From positions 412 through 64,411 of the forward strand of contig JABWAS010000004.1 of assembly GCA_013360865.1 (NCBI GenBank): a stretch of DNA of 64,000 bases. Direction: 5' to 3'. Below the pieces are notes generated by a model. It had not been told where the DNA came from. It saw only the letters and a list, made by a program, of their open reading frames with translations, and made no database searches. The translations under genes and the position numbers were made by a program. The DNA is from Candidatus Paceibacter sp. (GTDB taxonomy: Bacteria > Patescibacteriota > Minisyncoccia > UBA9983). Positions 20,099-30,487 of the stretch are shown here, in pieces. Every line of letters starts with the position of its first letter. The stretch's first letter is position 1.

Positions 20099-22396
20099 GT
20101 GAACGATAAATTATCTTTGTGTCACAGAATTGCCAAAAAATTATTTATCTACATCAACAATCACAATGGAGAAAAAAAAGATAGAGTTCTAAGGGACGAG
20201 CAAATGGCTGTTTTTGGAGAAATGGCAGAATTTTTTAACCGCGGAGAGCATGAAGGTTATATCAAGCTTCCTACGGGAGTTGGTAAAACTGTTTTATTCA
20301 TTGAGTTTCTTAAGGCAACGGGATTAAAGTCCATAATAGTAGTGCCAACCAATGTAATAACGGATCAAACAAAGAATCGGATAGAAGAATTTGCAGATAG
20401 TCTCGATTACGGAATTATAAACGCTTATGAAAAGGATTATGGCAAAACAATATCTATCACCACTTACAAGTCGCTTATACTCCAAGTAAGTAGCGGAAAA
20501 ATAAGTCCTAAAGATTATGAATGCGTCATTCTGGATGAAGCGCATAAAGCTCTTGGAAAAAAAGTGACAGAGATAATCAAACTTTTTCCTGAAGCCGTTA
20601 AAATTGGCTTTACCGCTACTCCACGTTATTCTGACGACAAGCATTTAGCTCACTTATTAACTAATGAAATAACGAGCATGTCAGTTCGTTCAGCGATTGA
20701 GGGTGGCTTGTTGTCAGGTTGTTCTGTTGTTTTTGCAATGACAGAAGTCAATATCTCACAGGTAAGCGTGCAAAATGGAAACTATTGCGAAGGAGAACTT
20801 GTAAAAGCCATAAATATTGAAAGCAGGAACTTTGGCGCTGTCGATATTTATAAGAAAATGTTTTCAGGCAAGAGTTCTATTGTGTATTGCGCAAGCATAA
20901 AACATGCTGAACAGGTTGCTTCATTATTTCAGAGTAATGAAATACCAGCCAGGGCGATAAGTTCTAAAAACAATAACAAAGAAAGGGAAAGCATGCTGAG
21001 AGATTTTTCTTCGGGAAAGATCAAGGTCTTATGTAATGCCGACCTCTTGATTCATGGTTTTGATGAGAAAAAGGCAAGTGTTTGCATAAATCTTTGTCCT
21101 ACTCTTTCGCTTGTTGTTGCGGAACAGAGAGCTGGGCGAGTCTTGAGACTGGATAATGAGAATCCGGATAAAGAGGCTTTTGTTGTTGATTTCTTGGATG
21201 TTACCAGAGCAAGCGCTTACCAACCAATCAGCTTTGCCGAGATATTAAACGGAGCAGATGTCAGGGGGCGAACCAACAGTCGCGACAATCGCCATAATAA
21301 TCAGTTTGTTGGCGGCAACGGCCATGATTTTAGCATTGGTAAAATAAAAGTAATCGCCAATGCTGAAATAATAATGAGAGTTATAAACGAGAGAAGGTTG
21401 CTAAGAAAGGCGACTAACAATTGGCTCAACTACGCTCAGTTTAAAGACTCGATAACCCGCGCTTTCGCTGAAATGATGGGCAGCAATTGGTCGGTCGAAA
21501 TAATGGGTGGCTTTATCGAAAAAATTAAAGAAGCCGAACCAGGCTGGTTTAGTGAAAGCAAAGAAGGCGAAAGTCTTAATTATTTTTGCGATCCTGCGCT
21601 TGTAAATTCCCTAAAAGCAGAATTTAAAAAAATAACTTCAGTGTGGATTAACCAAATCGACTTGGCGGAAAGATTAAAAATCAGTGAAATTGCTTTATTG
21701 GAGTTCGCACGTGTTATTAATGGTAATCTCGAAGAGGGTATTATCATTGATAAGATTGTAAACATTGACGGTAGGGAAGAAAAGATTCATTACATCCCGA
21801 GAAACATTCTCATGAAAAGGGTAAATGGAGTTAGGTTGGTGTATTTTTCGCCTAAGATGGTAAATTTGCTTGAGATAGAATTAAGAAAGAGCTCAGGTTC
21901 AGGACAAAGTAAACACGACGACAGTTCTTACCTAACAGAAGAAGAGTTAATAAATTTTCTTCTTACTAGTTTTGGTATGAGTGGTGACACAGAGGCCCAA
22001 GTCAAAATAAAGTCTTTTATTAGAAATTTTTTAAAAAAAGACCGCATTAGAGTAAAAAATCCTTTTTGGTTCCGCAATAAGGTTGTTATCAGGGAATCTT
22101 ATTCACCGGAATTCATTGAATTAATTAAGGGAGAAGTTAAAAATAAAGTTTACAATGACGAAAACGCAACCGGCGTTCACCAAAAGAATATCTTACTTTA
22201 TATGTGCAGAGAAAGGGGTATAAGTGTTCCTAGCTTCACTTTTACCATTACAGGACCGGACAATAGTCCTACTCATAGTTGTTTGTGTTTTCTGAATGAC
22301 GGCGGGAAAGTTATTAAAACAACCGGAACAGCCAAAACAAAAGCAGAGTCGAAAAAAATAGCAATAACAGAAATGTGTTCGTTATTGCGGTCTTAA
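20099..22396 (+). CDS. SF2 DEAH-box helicase (ResIII-like core) with ~330-aa unknown middle region and C-terminal dsRBD-like domain
   Basis: 765 aa; GTG start with AAAGGAG RBS; motif I LPTGVGKT, II ILDEAH, III FTATP, VI QRAGRVLR; C-terminal ~65 aa (SVPSFTFTITGPDNSPTHSCLCFLNDGGKVIKTTGTAKTKAESKKIAITEMCSLL) fits dsRBM alpha-beta3-alpha consensus; ~32% GC. Confidence 0.65.
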   Translation: MNDKLSLCHRIAKKLFIYINNHNGEKKDRVLRDEQMAVFGEMAEFFNRGEHEGYIKLPTGVGKTVLFIEFLKATGLKSIIVVPTNVITDQTKNRIEEFADSLDYGIINAYEKDYGKTISITTYKSLILQVSSGKISPKDYECVILDEAHKALGKKVTEIIKLFPEAVKIGFTATPRYSDDKHLAHLLTNEITSMSVRSAIEGGLLSGCSVVFAMTEVNISQVSVQNGNYCEGELVKAINIESRNFGAVDIYKKMFSGKSSIVYCASIKHAEQVASLFQSNEIPARAISSKNNNKERESMLRDFSSGKIKVLCNADLLIHGFDEKKASVCINLCPTLSLVVAEQRAGRVLRLDNENPDKEAFVVDFLDVTRASAYQPISFAEILNGADVRGRTNSRDNRHNNQFVGGNGHDFSIGKIKVIANAEIIMRVINERRLLRKATNNWLNYAQFKDSITRAFAEMMGSNWSVEIMGGFIEKIKEAEPGWFSESKEGESLNYFCDPALVNSLKAEFKKITSVWINQIDLAERLKISEIALLEFARVINGNLEEGIIIDKIVNIDGREEKIHYIPRNILMKRVNGVRLVYFSPKMVNLLEIELRKSSGSGQSKHDDSSYLTEEELINFLLTSFGMSGDTEAQVKIKSFIRNFLKKDRIRVKNPFWFRNKVVIRESYSPEFIELIKGEVKNKVYNDENATGVHQKNILLYMCRERGISVPSFTFTITGPDNSPTHSCLCFLNDGGKVIKTTGTAKTKAESKKIAITEMCSLLRS

Positions 22397-23756: not shown

Positions 23757-24965
23757 CTAAGGGAGAAGACCATGCAGCCATTTTTTTACGGTGCCGAATA
23801 TTTTTTTGGCCGGTTCGCCTTCCTTTTCCCCGTCCGCGTCAAAAACATTTTCGCCCGCGCCGCAGACGCAAAGTCCGAGCGCTACGGACCAGCCAGGGTC
23901 GTTAAGCAGCTGGTCGCGCAGGTTGTTGGTGGGGGCGGTGATGTTTAAAGAATTGGCGGAATAAGGAAGCAACGAGCCAACTTTTGCCGGTAGACGAAGA
24001 GATGCCCTGGCTATATCCTGAAGATTAAACAGATTGGAACCGCTTCCGGTCATTATGATTCCGGCAGGAAGAACTTGGTGGCGGTTTATTTTTTTAAGAT
24101 GGCTTTCTATCATTTCAAAAATGTCGTTCAGCCGGGCTTCTATTATGTCGGCCAGTTTTTTCTTCAGCCCGGGGGAGTCGGAGCCGTAGTTCATTTTCAT
24201 TTTTTCCGCTTCGTCCAGCGGCACCTGCAGTCCGAGGGCGATGTCGTTGGTTATGTGCGAAGAACCGATGGGGAAGACCTCCAACGATATCGGCAGGCCG
24301 TCCTCAAAGACGACCACGGAAACGGTGCTGGCGCCGATGTTTACCAGAACGCAGCCGGTTTCTTTCTGCTGTCTTGTCAGCACCGAGCAACTGGTGGCCA
24401 GGGGCGAAGCGATTATGTCGTCTATTACCAGCCCGGCCGCCTCCACTGTTTTTTCCAGGTTGGAAAAATGCAGATTGAGGCAGGTGACGAAAAGCGTTTC
24501 CACCTCAAGTTTAGTGCCTTTCATTTCGGTCGGGCGGCCGTGGACCAGGGCGTTGTCAACTTTAAACTGCAAAGGAATGGAGTGGATTATTTTTTTGTTG
24601 GCGACGTTGGCGAGATTGGATTCGCTTTGGGCGACGAGGCGTTTGATGTCGTGCTCGGTTATTTCGCCGTCGGCGGTGGAAGTGCGGATTGTTCCCTTGG
24701 CCCGGGCGGAGCCGAGGCTTATCCCGCCCACGGAAACCACGGCGCTTCTTATGGAGGAGCCGGAAATTTTTTCCAGATTTTTGATGGTGGAAGAAATCGT
24801 CCGCGAAGCGCTCTCTAGATTGGTGATGTAGCCCTTGCGCACCCCTTCCGACTCTTTCTGCGCCGCCGCGACAATATGCAAAGAACCGTCCTTTTTTTGT
24901 TCGACGGAGATGGCTCTTACGCTTGAGCTTCCGATATCAAGACCGGTGATTATTTTTCTGGCCAT
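23757..24965 (-). CDS. ftsA: Cell division protein FtsA
   Basis: 402 aa; actin-fold ITGLDIGSSSVRAI N-terminus; directly upstream of ftsZ. Confidence 0.85.
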   Translation of the reverse strand: MARKIITGLDIGSSSVRAISVEQKKDGSLHIVAAAQKESEGVRKGYITNLESASRTISSTIKNLEKISGSSIRSAVVSVGGISLGSARAKGTIRTSTADGEITEHDIKRLVAQSESNLANVANKKIIHSIPLQFKVDNALVHGRPTEMKGTKLEVETLFVTCLNLHFSNLEKTVEAAGLVIDDIIASPLATSCSVLTRQQKETGCVLVNIGASTVSVVVFEDGLPISLEVFPIGSSHITNDIALGLQVPLDEAEKMKMNYGSDSPGLKKKLADIIEARLNDIFEMIESHLKKINRHQVLPAGIIMTGSGSNLFNLQDIARASLRLPAKVGSLLPYSANSLNITAPTNNLRDQLLNDPGWSVALGLCVCGAGENVFDADGEKEGEPAKKIFGTVKKWLHGLLP

Positions 24966-25132
24966 GTCAAATTTGCCATTATCCTTTGATTATACAATAT
25001 TATAAACCATCGCTTCCCGAATAGGAATTGTGAATAATAGCTTATTTTACGACATTTGCATGGAATGTCCGGCTTATTTGCTCAAAGATTATTTTCAACC
25101 TAATATTTTTAATTGTTTTAACTCCTCCTTTT

Positions 25133-25939
25133 TCAGGTGAAGCTGTCGCTATTCCTTTTTGTCGCTATTCCTTTTTGTTGCAGCTCTGATTCATAAATTG
25201 GAACTATAAAGTCTGCGGCTGCTTTTAGTTTTGAAGAAGATTGTCTGCCTCTTTTTTCTGGCGGGTATCCTTTGATAAACTCAATTACCCCAGCCTGCTT
25301 GCCTTTATGTTTAATTCTTTGGATTGATGGAATGCTGTCCGCATCCCCAGAAATTATCAGTGCGACATCATATATATCAGCAAGAGTAACCATGTCAACC
25401 GCCAAGGAAGTATCAATACCTTTCTCGTATAAATTTTTATTTAGTATGTCTACTTTTAAATGACCACAAGCAATAATATCTATAAAATCAGTTCCAGAGC
25501 TAACACCAAAATGAAAATCACGCAACCCATCAACATATTTTTTCTTTTGGTTATACCACGTGCTAATCTCGCTGAAACAAAGACGCCATGCTTCGCTAGC
25601 TAATTCTATTGGCGATGCTTCTGTTGAAGATAAATTGCTCCCCGCCAATGCCAAATATTTACGCTGCAGATCTTTGTCAGATTTAAACCAGTCCAAAAGC
25701 TGATTCTTAGATTCTGGTTCATCCAGTTTCCAAATATCAATTGAACCGACCGCGTACCAAAGCACCCTAATCAAACGAGCTTGTCCATAACCTCCGCCCA
25801 TTACAGAGGAGCTCCAGGAATCTATAGCCTGTTTTAAAATATAGTTTAAAAAAGTTCCGTACTCTTTAACACGCAAATTAAGATACTTTAGAGAGCCTGT
25901 AAGGTTTGAACCGTCAACGAATATAATAAACCTAGTCAT
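25133..25939 (-). CDS. NYN/LabA-like (PIN-fold) ribonuclease domain protein
   Basis: 268 aa; IFVDGSNL...EKGIDTSLAVDM...ALIISGDADSIPSIQRIKHKGKQAGVI matches NYN domain Asp arrangement; ~33% GC. Confidence 0.65.
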   Translation of the reverse strand: MTRFIIFVDGSNLTGSLKYLNLRVKEYGTFLNYILKQAIDSWSSSVMGGGYGQARLIRVLWYAVGSIDIWKLDEPESKNQLLDWFKSDKDLQRKYLALAGSNLSSTEASPIELASEAWRLCFSEISTWYNQKKKYVDGLRDFHFGVSSGTDFIDIIACGHLKVDILNKNLYEKGIDTSLAVDMVTLADIYDVALIISGDADSIPSIQRIKHKGKQAGVIEFIKGYPPEKRGRQSSSKLKAAADFIVPIYESELQQKGIATKRNSDSFT

Positions 25940-26411
25940 TGAATTATATCAAATAAATAACAGCCTTAATATTAAATGGCAACTTTATAATTTTTTAAAT
26001 TATGTTCCCAAATCCTGATAACTTTCCAACCTAATTTTTTATAATAATTGTTTACTTCCTTGTCTCTTTGTTTATTTCTTTCAATTTTTAGCAACCAGTA
26101 ATTTTTTCTTGTTAACGGCAAACGACAATGTTTTCTGCAGCCATGCCAGGAACATTCATCACTTCGTCGTTAAACTTTCGGATTATGCCGTCCTCGTTTC
26201 TAAAACCGCCCTTCTCGGCTTGCAAGCCAAGTTAATTTAAAAAGATCTTCTCCGGTTGTATGAAATTCAAATAATGCATCCGCACCTTCTTTTTCAACAC
26301 TAATCATATTTTCGTCTTTTAAACAATCAACTGTAATCAATCCGTTTTTATCACAAATGTCGATTATTTCTTGGAGTGTATAATCTTTATCTTTCGTAAA
26401 AATATCCATAA

Positions 26412-27116
26412 CTACAAATAGCAAACAAACATCATTATTTTGTCGTGCTTTTTCAAATTGCATACAGCACAAAGTAATCTGATATTTTTTTCTGTCAAAC
26501 TTGTTCCCCCTTTTGCGTATGGCAAATCGTGGTCATAGTGTAGGTTTTCTGCTGAACCACATATAACGCATTTTCCTCTATCTCTTTCCCAAACTTTCAC
26601 CTTTACCGATGTTGGTATAAGTCGGTTAAACGGTAAATCCTCAACACGATTAAAAATTTTGGTCAAAACCGGTTTCAAATAAAACTTGAAAACGTTTCTT
26701 TTACCGTCCGACACTTGCTTAACATCAATCAATTGAAAAAATCCTTTTATTGACCAAACGCCAACGTCAATTTTTTCATAAACTTTCACAAGTTCTGGGT
26801 CTTTTTTTAAACCGCTTTTGAAATCCATTGCCGCTTTGTAAAATTTTCCATTCTCTGTCCAAGTTCCATTTGGCGTTTCAAGTGGTTGGTCTTTTTCTTT
26901 TGGGTCAATTCCACCTTCGGCTCTGGCATCGTGCCCTTCGTAAATTAAATTTCCGTTTTCATCAAATCCATCATTATAAACCGCATCTTTCCTTTGCGAC
27001 ATCAACAAAATTGAATGTTTTCTTTTACCATCGGAAAAAACCATGCCGCGTTGCAGCGGCATTTTTTCCATTGCCACCATTTCGTGATATGAAATTATTT
27101 TATCGCTGTCTTGCAT
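26412..27116 (-). CDS. HNH endonuclease with ~170-aa uncharacterised N-terminal domain
   Basis: 234 aa; C-terminal CVICGSAENLHYDHDLPYAKGG...LLCAVCNLKKHDK HNH/zinc motif; start 4 nt after stop of truncated MTase fragment. Confidence 0.7.
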   Translation of the reverse strand: MQDSDKIISYHEMVAMEKMPLQRGMVFSDGKRKHSILLMSQRKDAVYNDGFDENGNLIYEGHDARAEGGIDPKEKDQPLETPNGTWTENGKFYKAAMDFKSGLKKDPELVKVYEKIDVGVWSIKGFFQLIDVKQVSDGKRNVFKFYLKPVLTKIFNRVEDLPFNRLIPTSVKVKVWERDRGKCVICGSAENLHYDHDLPYAKGGTSLTEKNIRLLCAVCNLKKHDKIMMFVCYL

Positions 27117-27118
27117 AT

Positions 27119-27352
27119 TTATATTTTGATTAAATCGCCGTAATTTTTTTCTTCTTCGCCGAAAAAATCCCTGTAAGTTTTTACAGCGTTTTTATCTATT
27201 TCAGAAAACCCGACGCATTTCATTCCCAAGTTTTCAAGCCCGAGACGACCTCCGCCAATCCCGGCGCAAAAATCCATAAATTTAATTTTGTCACTAATCA
27301 TACTTTGTATTATATAAGAAATGACACAATATAAAATATTTTCATCTAGCAA
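27119..27352 (-). pseudogene. Truncated DNA cytosine-5 methyltransferase (N-terminal 77 aa only)
   Basis: Motif I FMDFCAGIGGGRLGLE and motif II/III region (CVGFSEIDKNAVKTY...GDLIKI) then stop; no PCQ (motif IV) or ENV follows. Confidence 0.6.
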
Positions 27353-27367
27353 TTGCGGGTAATTGTT

Positions 27368-27706
27368 TCAATCGGCAGACATTATTTTCTCCCAGTTTTT
27401 GGGGTGGAGTCCTCTCATCAGCGCCGCCTCGCTGTCGTCCATTTCTTCGCCGTGCTTGAAGCCCTTGAGATGCAGGAGAGAATGGATAAAAAGATAGTCG
27501 CCGTAATTTTTGCGGCGGTAGTTTTCGTTTATTAAAATTTCTCCGGAATTTTCAGAGAGAGGGAAGGAGAGGACATTGGCGGAATAATCTTTATGCCGGT
27601 AAATTTTGTTGAGTTTTGTCATTTCCTCCGGCGCGGCAAAGGCAAAACTCAAATCATAGTCTTTCCCCAAGACCTGATTTTTAAGTTTTAGCCAGCTTTG
27701 CTTCAT
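27368..27706 (-). CDS. ybeY: rRNA maturation endoribonuclease YbeY
   Basis: 112 aa; HSLLHLKGFKHGEE (H..H....H zinc motif). Confidence 0.8.
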   Translation of the reverse strand: MKQSWLKLKNQVLGKDYDLSFAFAAPEEMTKLNKIYRHKDYSANVLSFPLSENSGEILINENYRRKNYGDYLFIHSLLHLKGFKHGEEMDDSEAALMRGLHPKNWEKIMSAD

Positions 27707-27723
27707 GGTTTTAGAAAAGGCAC

Positions 27724-27810
27724 AAGAAACAAATTTTGAAAATCCTGGGCGGGGGCGGCCGGCCGAGTCTGCGAGCCTGCCTGCCGGCAGGCAGGGCTGG
27801 GGCTAGAGGA
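27724..27810. repeat. MITE-like element with 13-14 bp terminal inverted repeats (TTTTGAAAATCCT ... AGGATTTTCCAAAA) and central palindrome CCTGCCTGCCGGCAGGCAGG
   Basis: Related copies at 60553..60680 (inverse orientation, longer) and core at 36008..36028. Confidence 0.75.
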
Positions 27811-27837
27811 TTTTCCAAAATTTGGTTTCTGAAGCCT

Positions 27838-28053
27838 TTACTCTATAATACCTAGTTTCCTCAAGAGCTCGCCTTTTTTCTTTGAGGCTTCTCTTTTGAG
27901 CGCGTCTTCTTTTTTCTTCAGCTCCGATTTCGGCCTGTTTCTGAAGCGCATGCTTTTTATCCGGCTGATGTTGCCGGACTGCTTCACCCTCTGGCTGAAT
28001 CTTCTAAGAAGGCTCAACGCTGTTTCGTTTTCTTTTCTTTTTACTTCAAGCAT
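27838..28053 (-). CDS. rpsU: 30S ribosomal protein S21
   Basis: 71 aa, basic; MLEVKRKENE...LRRFSQRVKQSG... typical S21. Confidence 0.8.
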   Translation of the reverse strand: MLEVKRKENETALSLLRRFSQRVKQSGNISRIKSMRFRNRPKSELKKKEDALKREASKKKGELLRKLGIIE

Positions 28054-30006: not shown

Positions 30007-30270
30007 GTGGTAAAAATATTCCGCTATAATTTAATATTCAGACCTGAACCAGAAGGAGGTTTTACTGTAACCGTCCCAAGCTTGCCGGGTTGTGTTTCTT
30101 ATGGAGGAAATATTAAAGAAGCAAAAGAAATGGCGCGTGATGCTATAAGAGGGTATCTTTATAGTCTTGAGAAACACAAGGAATCAATTCCTTCCGATAT
30201 TGATAATTTTGTTACTACTATAGACATAGAATCCAAAAAACAGCCGTCTAAAAAGTTGACTTATGTCTAA
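30007..30270 (+). CDS. hicB: HicB-family antitoxin
   Basis: 87 aa; FRPEPEGGFTVTVPSLPGCVSYGGNIKEAKEMARDAI HicB/UPF0150 pattern. Confidence 0.7.
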   Translation: MVKIFRYNLIFRPEPEGGFTVTVPSLPGCVSYGGNIKEAKEMARDAIRGYLYSLEKHKESIPSDIDNFVTTIDIESKKQPSKKLTYV

Positions 30271-30487
30271 ACTGCCGGTCTTAACTTCCAAGAAGTTGAT
30301 TAAAATAATTGAGAAACTCGGTTTTCAGTTAGACCATAAAACCGGCAGTCATTTTATTTTTTACAATCAGGAAAATAAAAAACGAGTTACTGTTCCTTAT
30401 CATTCCAAAGACTTACCCAAGGGAACAATTTTAAGTATTTTAAAACAAGCTGGAATAACAAAAGACGACGTAGAAAAAATTTCTTAG
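30263..30487 (+). CDS. hicA: HicA-family mRNA interferase toxin
   Basis: 74 aa; KKLIKIIEKLGFQLDHKTGSHFIF...VPYHSKDLPKGTILSILKQAG HicA pattern; overlaps hicB by 8 nt. Confidence 0.7.
   Translation: MSKLPVLTSKKLIKIIEKLGFQLDHKTGSHFIFYNQENKKRVTVPYHSKDLPKGTILSILKQAGITKDDVEKIS

Follow-up and report, generated by a model that had tools for sequence, protein, structure and literature searches.

The question raised by the stretch of DNA analysed here, a 64,000-nucleotide (nt) window of a Candidatus Paceibacter sp. contig (JABWAS010000004.1, positions 412 to 64,411), is why a C5 DNA methylase gene that breaks off after its first motifs should stand directly before a gene for an HNH nuclease, in an AT-rich cluster upstream of ftsA. 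As argued below, the locus is probably an AT-rich acquired relic of a GCGC restriction-modification (R-M) operon, the core of which has been replaced by a module made up of a nuclease gene with a predicted N-terminal SRA domain (SRA-HNH) and a small companion open reading frame (ORF), here called X, and the nuclease is most likely dependent on 5-methylcytosine (5mC). The features of the locus, with the host genes on either side and with lengths in amino acids (aa), are as follows.

27368..27706, minus strand: ybeY (Pfam YbeY, E 5e-15), the host gene bounding the island on its upstream side
27119..27352, minus strand: methylase stub ORF, 77 aa, with methylase homology at 27122..27304 and the stop codon at 27119-27121
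26412..27116, minus strand: SRA-HNH nuclease gene, 234 aa, HNH domain at residues 183-226
26200..26472, minus strand: ORF of 90 aa, which is X plus an upstream extension
26200..26409, minus strand: X, 69 aa, the conserved part, starting at the ATG at 26409
26167..26247, minus strand: frameshifted 5' remnant of an R.HinP1I-like gene, about codons 5-31, overlapping the 3' end of X
25972..26157, minus strand: 3' remnant of vsr, about residues 64-119, including a 49-aa ORF at 25972-26121
25133..25939, minus strand: NYN/LabA-like protein, 268 aa, NYN domain at residues 168-243 (Pfam E 5e-10)
23757..24965, minus strand: ftsA, next after the NYN gene

The methylase fragment, the nuclease and their companions

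It is noted that the AT-rich minus-strand cluster upstream of ftsA described in the original prediction is present with all its named features, the GC fractions of 0.30-0.385 (stub 0.366, HNH gene 0.366, X 0.324, Vsr remnant 0.303, NYN gene 0.385) standing against 0.49-0.53 for housekeeping genes (ftsA 0.527, ftsZ 0.522, hisS 0.493). The stub is the truncated C5 methylase with motifs I-III that it had been taken for, matching positions 1-50 of the 324 positions of Pfam DNA_methylase (E 2e-12) and also TIGR00675 dcm (E 9e-14). Its methylase part corresponds to residues 3-63 of an intact 328-aa relative, and with residues 6-63 of the 328-aa intact methylase at locus L069 the stub shares 76% identity (the L-numbers denote the loci fetched for comparison). 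A complete methylase, with motifs I-X and the target-recognition domain, is not present at the locus, and no other C5 methylase was found in the 64-kb window. The stop codon of the stub lies 2 nt before the start of the HNH gene; the predicted 234-aa HNH protein stands, and the predicted spacing of 4 nt does not.

In the HNH protein, the HNH domain (Pfam HNH, E 5e-8, residues 183-226) lies within an HNH/zinc-finger nuclease part of about residues 170-228, and the predicted structure has an SRA-like domain at about residues 1-160. In the AlphaFold (AF2) model, which was built on 37 homologues and has a predicted local distance difference test score (pLDDT) of 81, the N-terminal ~160 residues gave as best Foldseek match the SRA domain of SUVH5 (E 1e-5, target template-modelling score 0.60), with further matches to the SRA domains of UHRF1 and SUVH6/KRYPTONITE and to the modification-dependent nucleases ScoMcrA, AspBHI, MspJI and LpnPI (Type IV/IIM). 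The earlier suggestion that this domain could be a modified-base reader is thus supported by the predicted fold. Residues Y47, D49, Y59, C183, C186, H193, D195, H196, N211, C216 and N220 are invariant in the 37 homologues. In a profile alignment with an E value of only 0.96, Y47-x-D49 and Y59-E-G align with 'GGYNDVLD...LIYTGQGG' of SUVH5, the 'YND...LIYTG' segment of which we take to be the part that forms the 5mC pocket. The nonsynonymous-to-synonymous rate ratio (dN/dS) of the HNH gene is 0.05 within the clade. Because of the SRA fold, the invariant HNH and zinc residues and this low dN/dS, the protein is most likely a methyl-dependent restriction enzyme, that is, a candidate enzyme of the Type IV-like modification-dependent class.

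The protein belongs to a sequence family separate from TagI/ScoA3IV with the same architecture. The family comprises about 2,234 proteins of about 247 aa, which share about 60% identity across Verrucomicrobiota, Nitrospirota, Ignavibacteriota, Bacteroidota, Acidobacteriota and Patescibacteria, and which, where named, are annotated as "HNH endonuclease" or "hypothetical protein". PADLOC gave weak REase_II matches on the HNH region (E 3e-4), the PHROG matches are limited to the HNH core, and one scan of 2.9 million viral contigs gave no copy of the gene. A phage origin of the module was considered and rejected, that scan having given merely an unrelated HNH core.

X starts 2 nt after the stop codon of the HNH gene. 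Its first ~55 aa are of no known family and are followed by codons 5-16 of R.HinP1I (from 26247), this tail being in frame in L020 and shifted by +1 in most other copies. X is conserved beside the HNH gene in 21 loci with a dN/dS of 0.145; no family match was found in Pfam, PADLOC, NCBIfam or PHROG, and a single-sequence AF2 model (pLDDT 74) gave no Foldseek match below E 2. The 90-aa ORF had been proposed as a possible remnant of the C-terminus of the methylase, which it is not, being X with an upstream extension. That X itself is a diverged remnant of the methylase or restriction gene was also rejected: blastn and tblastx against the intact DNA of these genes gave chance matches only, and just the last ~14 codons are derived from the restriction gene.

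The source of the remaining pieces becomes clear by comparison with intact operons, which were recovered by a search with the restriction gene fragment from the Patescibacteria contigs L068, L069 and L070. In these operons a helix-turn-helix controller (69 aa) is followed by a C5 methylase (328-331 aa; gene M), an R.HinP1I-like nuclease (253 aa; gene R) and Vsr (126-134 aa). The intact R product matches R.HinP1I (PDB 1ynm, E 1e-78) and the intact methylase is closest to M.HhaI (E 2e-40); to judge from these matches, the operon is a GCGC R-M system of the HinP1I/HhaI kind. Two remnants of it had been missed before. The R remnant, of about 27 codons, aligns as DNA to the composite loci L007 and L028, described below, and to intact R genes (phmmer E 0.002-0.005 against intact R). 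The Vsr remnant covers positions 80-119 of the 119 of TIGR00632 (E 1e-11; PADLOC Vsr, E 7e-8), shares 70% identity with residues 64-119 of the intact L069 Vsr, and has no start codon. A deletion of about 850 nt, which took away most of R and half of vsr, fuses the R remnant to Vsr residues ~64-119, and the frame containing 'NDEVMNVPGM', formerly thought to be another possible methylase remnant, is made up of R.HinP1I codons that run on into an out-of-frame reading of Vsr. As they stand, none of the methylase, R and Vsr relics of the window can be functional.

The surroundings of the intact genes are also noted. A ThsB-like gene with a TIR domain follows the intact HinP1I-like R-Vsr genes at L071:1243-1680, and at the corresponding place in L067/L068 and L069/L070 there are genes for an AAA_15/AAA_21 ATPase and for Schlafen/AlbA_2. 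These neighbours indicate that the HinP1I-like operon sits in defence islands.

Replacement of the operon core in related loci

Is the arrangement in the window an isolated accident? A profile of C5 methylases was run over the six-frame translations of all fetched loci, among which there are 142 SRA-HNH loci, 37 of them at 64% identity or more and 105 at 54-63%. Relatives at least 80% identical repeat the order methylase fragment, HNH gene, small ORF, R.HinP1I fragment and Vsr, the composite order being found in L001, L007-11, L015, L019, L022, L027, L028 and L054. At the left junction of L010, L019 and L027 the methylase is kept to residue ~114 (...KNLKY/FILENV, with the slash marking the break), just before motif VI, with the ATG of the HNH gene at the junction; in shorter stubs, of 79, 65 and 56 residues, the junction is likewise 0-4 nt before this ATG, and throughout the composites the stop codon of the stub falls within 10 nt of it. 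At the right junction the module meets R at codon ~5, and R in the composites is always without a start codon, truncated or deleted. Methylase residues ~115-328 and R codons 1-4 are missing in all composites, and no locus has both halves of the methylase.

In 17 of the 37 loci at 64% identity or more a C5 methylase fragment directly abuts the HNH gene. Broken methylases at this frequency are not the usual picture, since published surveys find DNA methylases near fewer than 6% of the HNH nucleases of the PUA superfamily (PMC6765204). A full-length C5 methylase was found in none of the 142 loci within the fetched flanks. This bears on the possibility that the HNH protein is an ordinary Type II partner of the methylase and the truncation an assembly artefact. 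Type II enzymes of the HNH kind do exist and the weak REase_II match would fit with them. We regard this possibility as scarcely credible, however, because the intact operon already has a nuclease of the R.HinP1I type, no locus has an intact methylase beside the HNH gene, and in the species of the window the identical truncated locus was assembled independently in at least 12 contigs (L152-L163) from different samples.

The methylase fragments come from at least four lineages: HinP1I-like, HhaI-like (L129), the L013/L017 type and the L076 type. In L129, which is fully pseudogenised, an HhaI-like methylase is broken at FLLEN/; in L013/L014 and L017/L074 a C-terminal methylase fragment (motifs IX-X, 'QIGNAVP') lies downstream of the HNH gene; and the acidobacterial L076 has a methylase without motifs I-II, followed by Vsr. 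In a Hydrogenedentota metagenome-assembled genome (MAG), a DUF4928 ORF (L002:6732-7259, = L075) begins 18 nt after an 83%-identical SRA-HNH gene and is the 3' half of a restriction gene, matching a 331-position model of Type II restriction enzymes only from 164 to 319. A 265-aa ORF upstream of the HNH gene in L013/L014 was tried as a further restriction gene and rejected, since it matched no family.

These junctions also bear on the earlier proposal of a homing-type HNH insertion that split a dcm gene. What stands of it is that a foreign module broke the methylase gene; a clean split does not, the 3' two-thirds of M and the first R codons having been replaced. If the HNH protein were a classical site-specific homing endonuclease, a cut near methylase motif VI would drive the copying of its gene, and it is true that in two methylase families (HinP1I-like, KNLKY/ and KYFI/; HhaI-like, FLLEN/) the junctions are only a few codons away from motif VI (ENV), that the flanks behave as homology arms and that mosaic recombinants exist. 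Nevertheless we consider a homing endonuclease unlikely, because the N-terminal domain is predicted to be an SRA base-flipping reader rather than a domain that binds DNA sequence-specifically, what took place is a replacement with loss of ~640 nt from M and of the beginning of R, M also has junctions at other places (positions 63, 270 and 281), the sister clade, with its 105 loci, is free-standing, and the viral contigs hold no copy, the PHROG matches being to the HNH core.

A further question is whether the stub still does something. Among the same-species contigs, the stub holds five of the six single-nucleotide polymorphism (SNP) sites of 2.8 kb (Fisher p 2e-5), a roughly 50-fold enrichment; the changes are mostly C/T or G/A, and four of the five are nonsynonymous, including D62Y in motif III. 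Because the within-species SNPs concentrate there and mostly change the protein, the stub is a relic. Among stubs of different loci, dN/dS is 0.12 with dS saturated, an apparent constraint that is inherited from functional alleles via recombination: the stubs match different intact alleles, that of L015 being 90% nucleotide-identical to L068 and those of L022/L027 resembling L069, and the same junctions are shared with unlike stubs. It could be supposed that the stub works as a small protein in its own right, for instance as an S-adenosylmethionine-binding or regulatory partner of the nuclease, since its frame is open in all composites, its dN/dS is low and its stop codon is always beside the HNH start. 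We find this decidedly unlikely, as stubs range in length between 56 and 116 aa and only some include the catalytic PCQ motif, the low dN/dS is explained by recombination drawing on different functional alleles, the SNPs have the pattern just given, and HNH plus X modules occur without any stub in L012, L020 and L050.

Recombination of the module is also seen directly. L007 and L028 agree at 100% identity along 900 nt, a stretch made up of the HNH gene, X and ~300 nt at the 5' end of R; past this point their identity falls to 68-88%, and L028 is from there on 94-100% identical to L071 through the 3' part of R, Vsr and 200 nt further, L071 being a contig that has a full-length R, Vsr and the ThsB-TIR gene and is cut at the start of R. 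From the alignments, then, the same module is present in two backgrounds with the crossover inside R, and intact and invaded alleles coexist in one background, which indicates a recent spread of the module by homologous recombination.

How, then, did the relics come into the genome of the window? Other backgrounds (L007-9 and L015) have a similar junction between M and the HNH gene, 5 nt shorter and near methylase codon 63-65, and tblastn with the controller of the intact operon gave no match between ybeY and the stub, where a promoter for the methylase is missing as well. GCGC is not avoided in the window, with an observed/expected ratio of 0.89, from which it can be argued that the R-M system was never active in this genome. 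The shared low GC, the similar junction elsewhere, the missing controller and the lack of GCGC avoidance together mean that the relics arrived with the module, and the methylase was not inactivated in situ in this genome. It had also been proposed that the presence of a methyl-dependent nuclease selected for inactivation of the methylase; the incompatibility behind that proposal is retained in what follows, but its placing of the inactivation in this genome is not.

Some observations on other copies of the gene are added here. At L016:3211-4155 a second HNH protein, of 314 aa, with an uncharacterised N-terminal domain and a match to the PADLOC model of Type IV methyl-directed enzymes (E 1e-8), lies 850 nt upstream of an SRA-HNH homologue, so that two putative modification-dependent nucleases stand side by side. 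At L073:4001-4705, in a Candidatus Moraniibacteriota MAG, a 91%-identical SRA-HNH gene is broken into ORFs of 120 and 84 aa and is apparently a pseudogene. At L024:4923-5696 (also L025 and L026) an 81%-identical gene with a different N-terminal extension lies in a high-GC genome among large GC-rich ORFs, a setting that indicates recent cross-phylum transfer.

The proposed pathway and its relation to known systems

Based on the above, the following pathway can be proposed. The SRA-HNH nuclease would flip 5mC, or 5-hydroxymethylcytosine (5hmC), into its SRA pocket, and the HNH domain would nick or cut the DNA nearby, the target presumably being methylated foreign DNA, in a role of defence. Such a nuclease could not coexist with a genome-wide C5 methylase, and it would be because of this incompatibility that every neighbouring methylase gene is broken and that the restriction gene, which would then be lethal, is dead too. 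In the ancestral composite the start codon of the HNH gene would directly follow methylase codon ~114, and the other end of the module would run in frame into R codon ~5, with the nuclease expressed from the signals of the upstream gene by way of a stub stop codon 0-10 nt from its ATG. The methylase and R/Vsr relics would then serve as homology arms, by which the module enters intact operons through homologous recombination. The copy in the window has decayed further, with the stub down to 63 residues and the ~850-nt deletion, and selection now acts only on the nuclease and X. As to expression in the window, ybeY lies on the same strand as the island, its end being 64 nt from the methylase-homologous sequence and 250 nt upstream of the HNH gene, and no convincing promoter or terminator was found between ybeY and the HNH gene, a scan of 24800-27900 having given counts near the shuffled expectation; the HNH gene is thus presumably expressed by read-through from ybeY.

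A bolder reading, which we put forward tentatively as a serious possibility falling somewhat short of an even chance, is that the SRA-HNH gene and X form a selfish cassette which, with the operon relics as its homology arms, homes by recombination into intact C5 R-M operons, mostly GCGC systems but now and then others, in Patescibacteria and beyond. A single event would destroy the methylase gene and the restriction gene together and flip the lineage from writing 5mC to restricting it. X, or control by the retained controller protein and promoter, may let the cell survive the switch.

Several points weigh against the reading of the locus as an R-M relic overwritten by a 5mC-dependent nuclease. 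The SRA domain is weak at the level of sequence: the check with reader-domain profiles that the original prediction had called for gave Pfam SAD_SRA at only E 0.076, where the fold search reached the SUVH5 SRA at E 1e-5, and the PDB profile match to SUVH5 has E 0.96. Searches of the PDB sequences, both single-sequence and with the profile, gave no similarity to TagI at E<=10, and the modification dependence of the protein is drawn from its fold and context. In the clade of 54-63% identity the 105 loci are without any methylase signal; this means that only one subclade, and not the family as a whole, invades R-M operons. The direction of the exchange between L028 and L071 is likewise a deduction, since L071 is cut at the start of R. 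Moreover, the replacement of M and R together in a methylated cell should be doubly toxic, through residual restriction enzyme and through the action of the nuclease on residual 5mC.

Among known systems, the closest in architecture are TagI, ScoA3IV (Sco5333) and TbiR51I (Tbis1), which likewise have an N-terminal SRA domain, a C-terminal HNH domain with a zinc finger, a similar size and no cognate methylase. In dcm+ E. coli neither Sco5333 nor Tbis1 can be established (PMC4333417), and TagI cuts 5mC- and 5hmC-containing DNA in several sequence contexts (PMC6212794); by analogy with these enzymes (PMC4333417, PMC6212794), an incompatibility with C5 methylation would be expected here. Unlike the TagI group, the family of the window has no detectable TagI similarity and its Pfam SRA match is below threshold, and the Patescibacteria subclade, known here from sequence, has a conserved companion ORF and sits in R-M relics. 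The flanking relics have their source in the GCGC systems of HinP1I/HhaI with Vsr, of which nothing is left in the window but residues 3-63 of M, codons ~5-31 of R and residues ~64-119 of Vsr.

The mutual exclusion of a C5-type methylase and a methyl-dependent HNH nuclease has a parallel in PcaRCI and PcaRCII of Pectobacterium (Birkholz et al. 2022, PMC8989522), where the incoming R-M system silences the resident nuclease via promoter methylation (PMC8989522). By contrast, the outcome here is the reverse, with the nuclease gene physically taking the place of the genes for methylase and restriction enzyme. As in free-standing HNH homing genes of phages, there is an HNH core and a spread into homologous 'empty' alleles with co-conversion of the flanks, and such a transfer is seen in L007/L028/L071, although this does not imply the nuclease as its driver. 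Unlike those genes, the present ones have a predicted SRA reader, replace with deletion, are not in viral contigs and, for most family members, lie outside any gene.

The neighbourhood of the island and the meaning of the replacement

It remains to consider the NYN gene between the module and ftsA. It is co-oriented and downstream as predicted, with a GC content of 38.5% in place of the ~33% given for it. Its protein matches PADLOC HEC-09 (E 1e-12) and belongs to a small family of 183 members that occurs sporadically and in which the closest relative is 65% identical. Two homologue contexts were examined, and both are housekeeping neighbourhoods that lack HNH, M and Vsr. At L012:4339-4932, L072:2978-3571 and L001:8255-8884 the module has NYN genes from other subfamilies nearby; these are only 33-39% identical over short stretches and lie on different sides of the module, and their presence may be chance in NYN-rich Patescibacteria. 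If the stub, the HNH gene and the NYN gene were one three-gene defence system with the NYN RNase as effector or partner, their co-orientation, adjacency and AT-richness, the HEC-09 match and those other NYN genes near modules (L012/L072, L001) would fit. However, such a system is highly improbable, because the homologue contexts are of the housekeeping kind, the NYN genes at other modules are so little alike and vary in side, and a dead vsr remnant lies between the NYN gene and the module in the window. The idea of the NYN gene as a member of the unit is therefore dropped, and it is treated as an unrelated, independent accessory neighbour.

An empty ybeY-ftsA site was not found, look-ups of the exact proteins having given only the same species and the same locus. 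In the whole window, TCGA (observed/expected 0.40) and GATC (0.47) are strongly avoided among the 4-bp palindromes, which suggests TaqI-like and MboI/DpnII-like restriction pressure on the genome, past or present. An AT-rich gene at 20099-22396 on the plus strand, convergent with ftsZ, encodes a 765-aa ResIII/Helicase_C superfamily-2 helicase, with a weak C-terminal tail like a double-stranded-RNA-binding domain (Pfam dsrm, E 0.06). PADLOC matches it weakly to PbeA and also to Type IV methyl-directed restriction enzymes, and the gene may represent a second island of the defence type beside the cell-division genes. Note also the pair of a HicB-like antitoxin and a HicA toxin at 30007-30487 on the plus strand, between the genes for signal peptidase and dUTPase.

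Finally, we consider what the finding means. The window itself is modest, holding one live nuclease gene and a small partner amid dead hitchhiking relics. Conflicts between methylases and methyl-dependent nucleases have previously been seen as exclusion or silencing; here, in the reading preferred above, the nuclease gene overwrites the core of the opposing operon, and the overwriting is repeated in several methylase lineages, with one recombinant caught in the act. This would give a concrete mechanism for the turnover of defence systems and for abrupt changes in the methylome and in DNA-exchange compatibility, in organisms, the Patescibacteria, that are thought to depend on DNA uptake. Moreover, a highly conserved family of more than 2,000 members that is labelled just "HNH endonuclease" would consist, on the predicted structure, of SRA-HNH enzymes, which are candidate new 5mC/5hmC-dependent nucleases.

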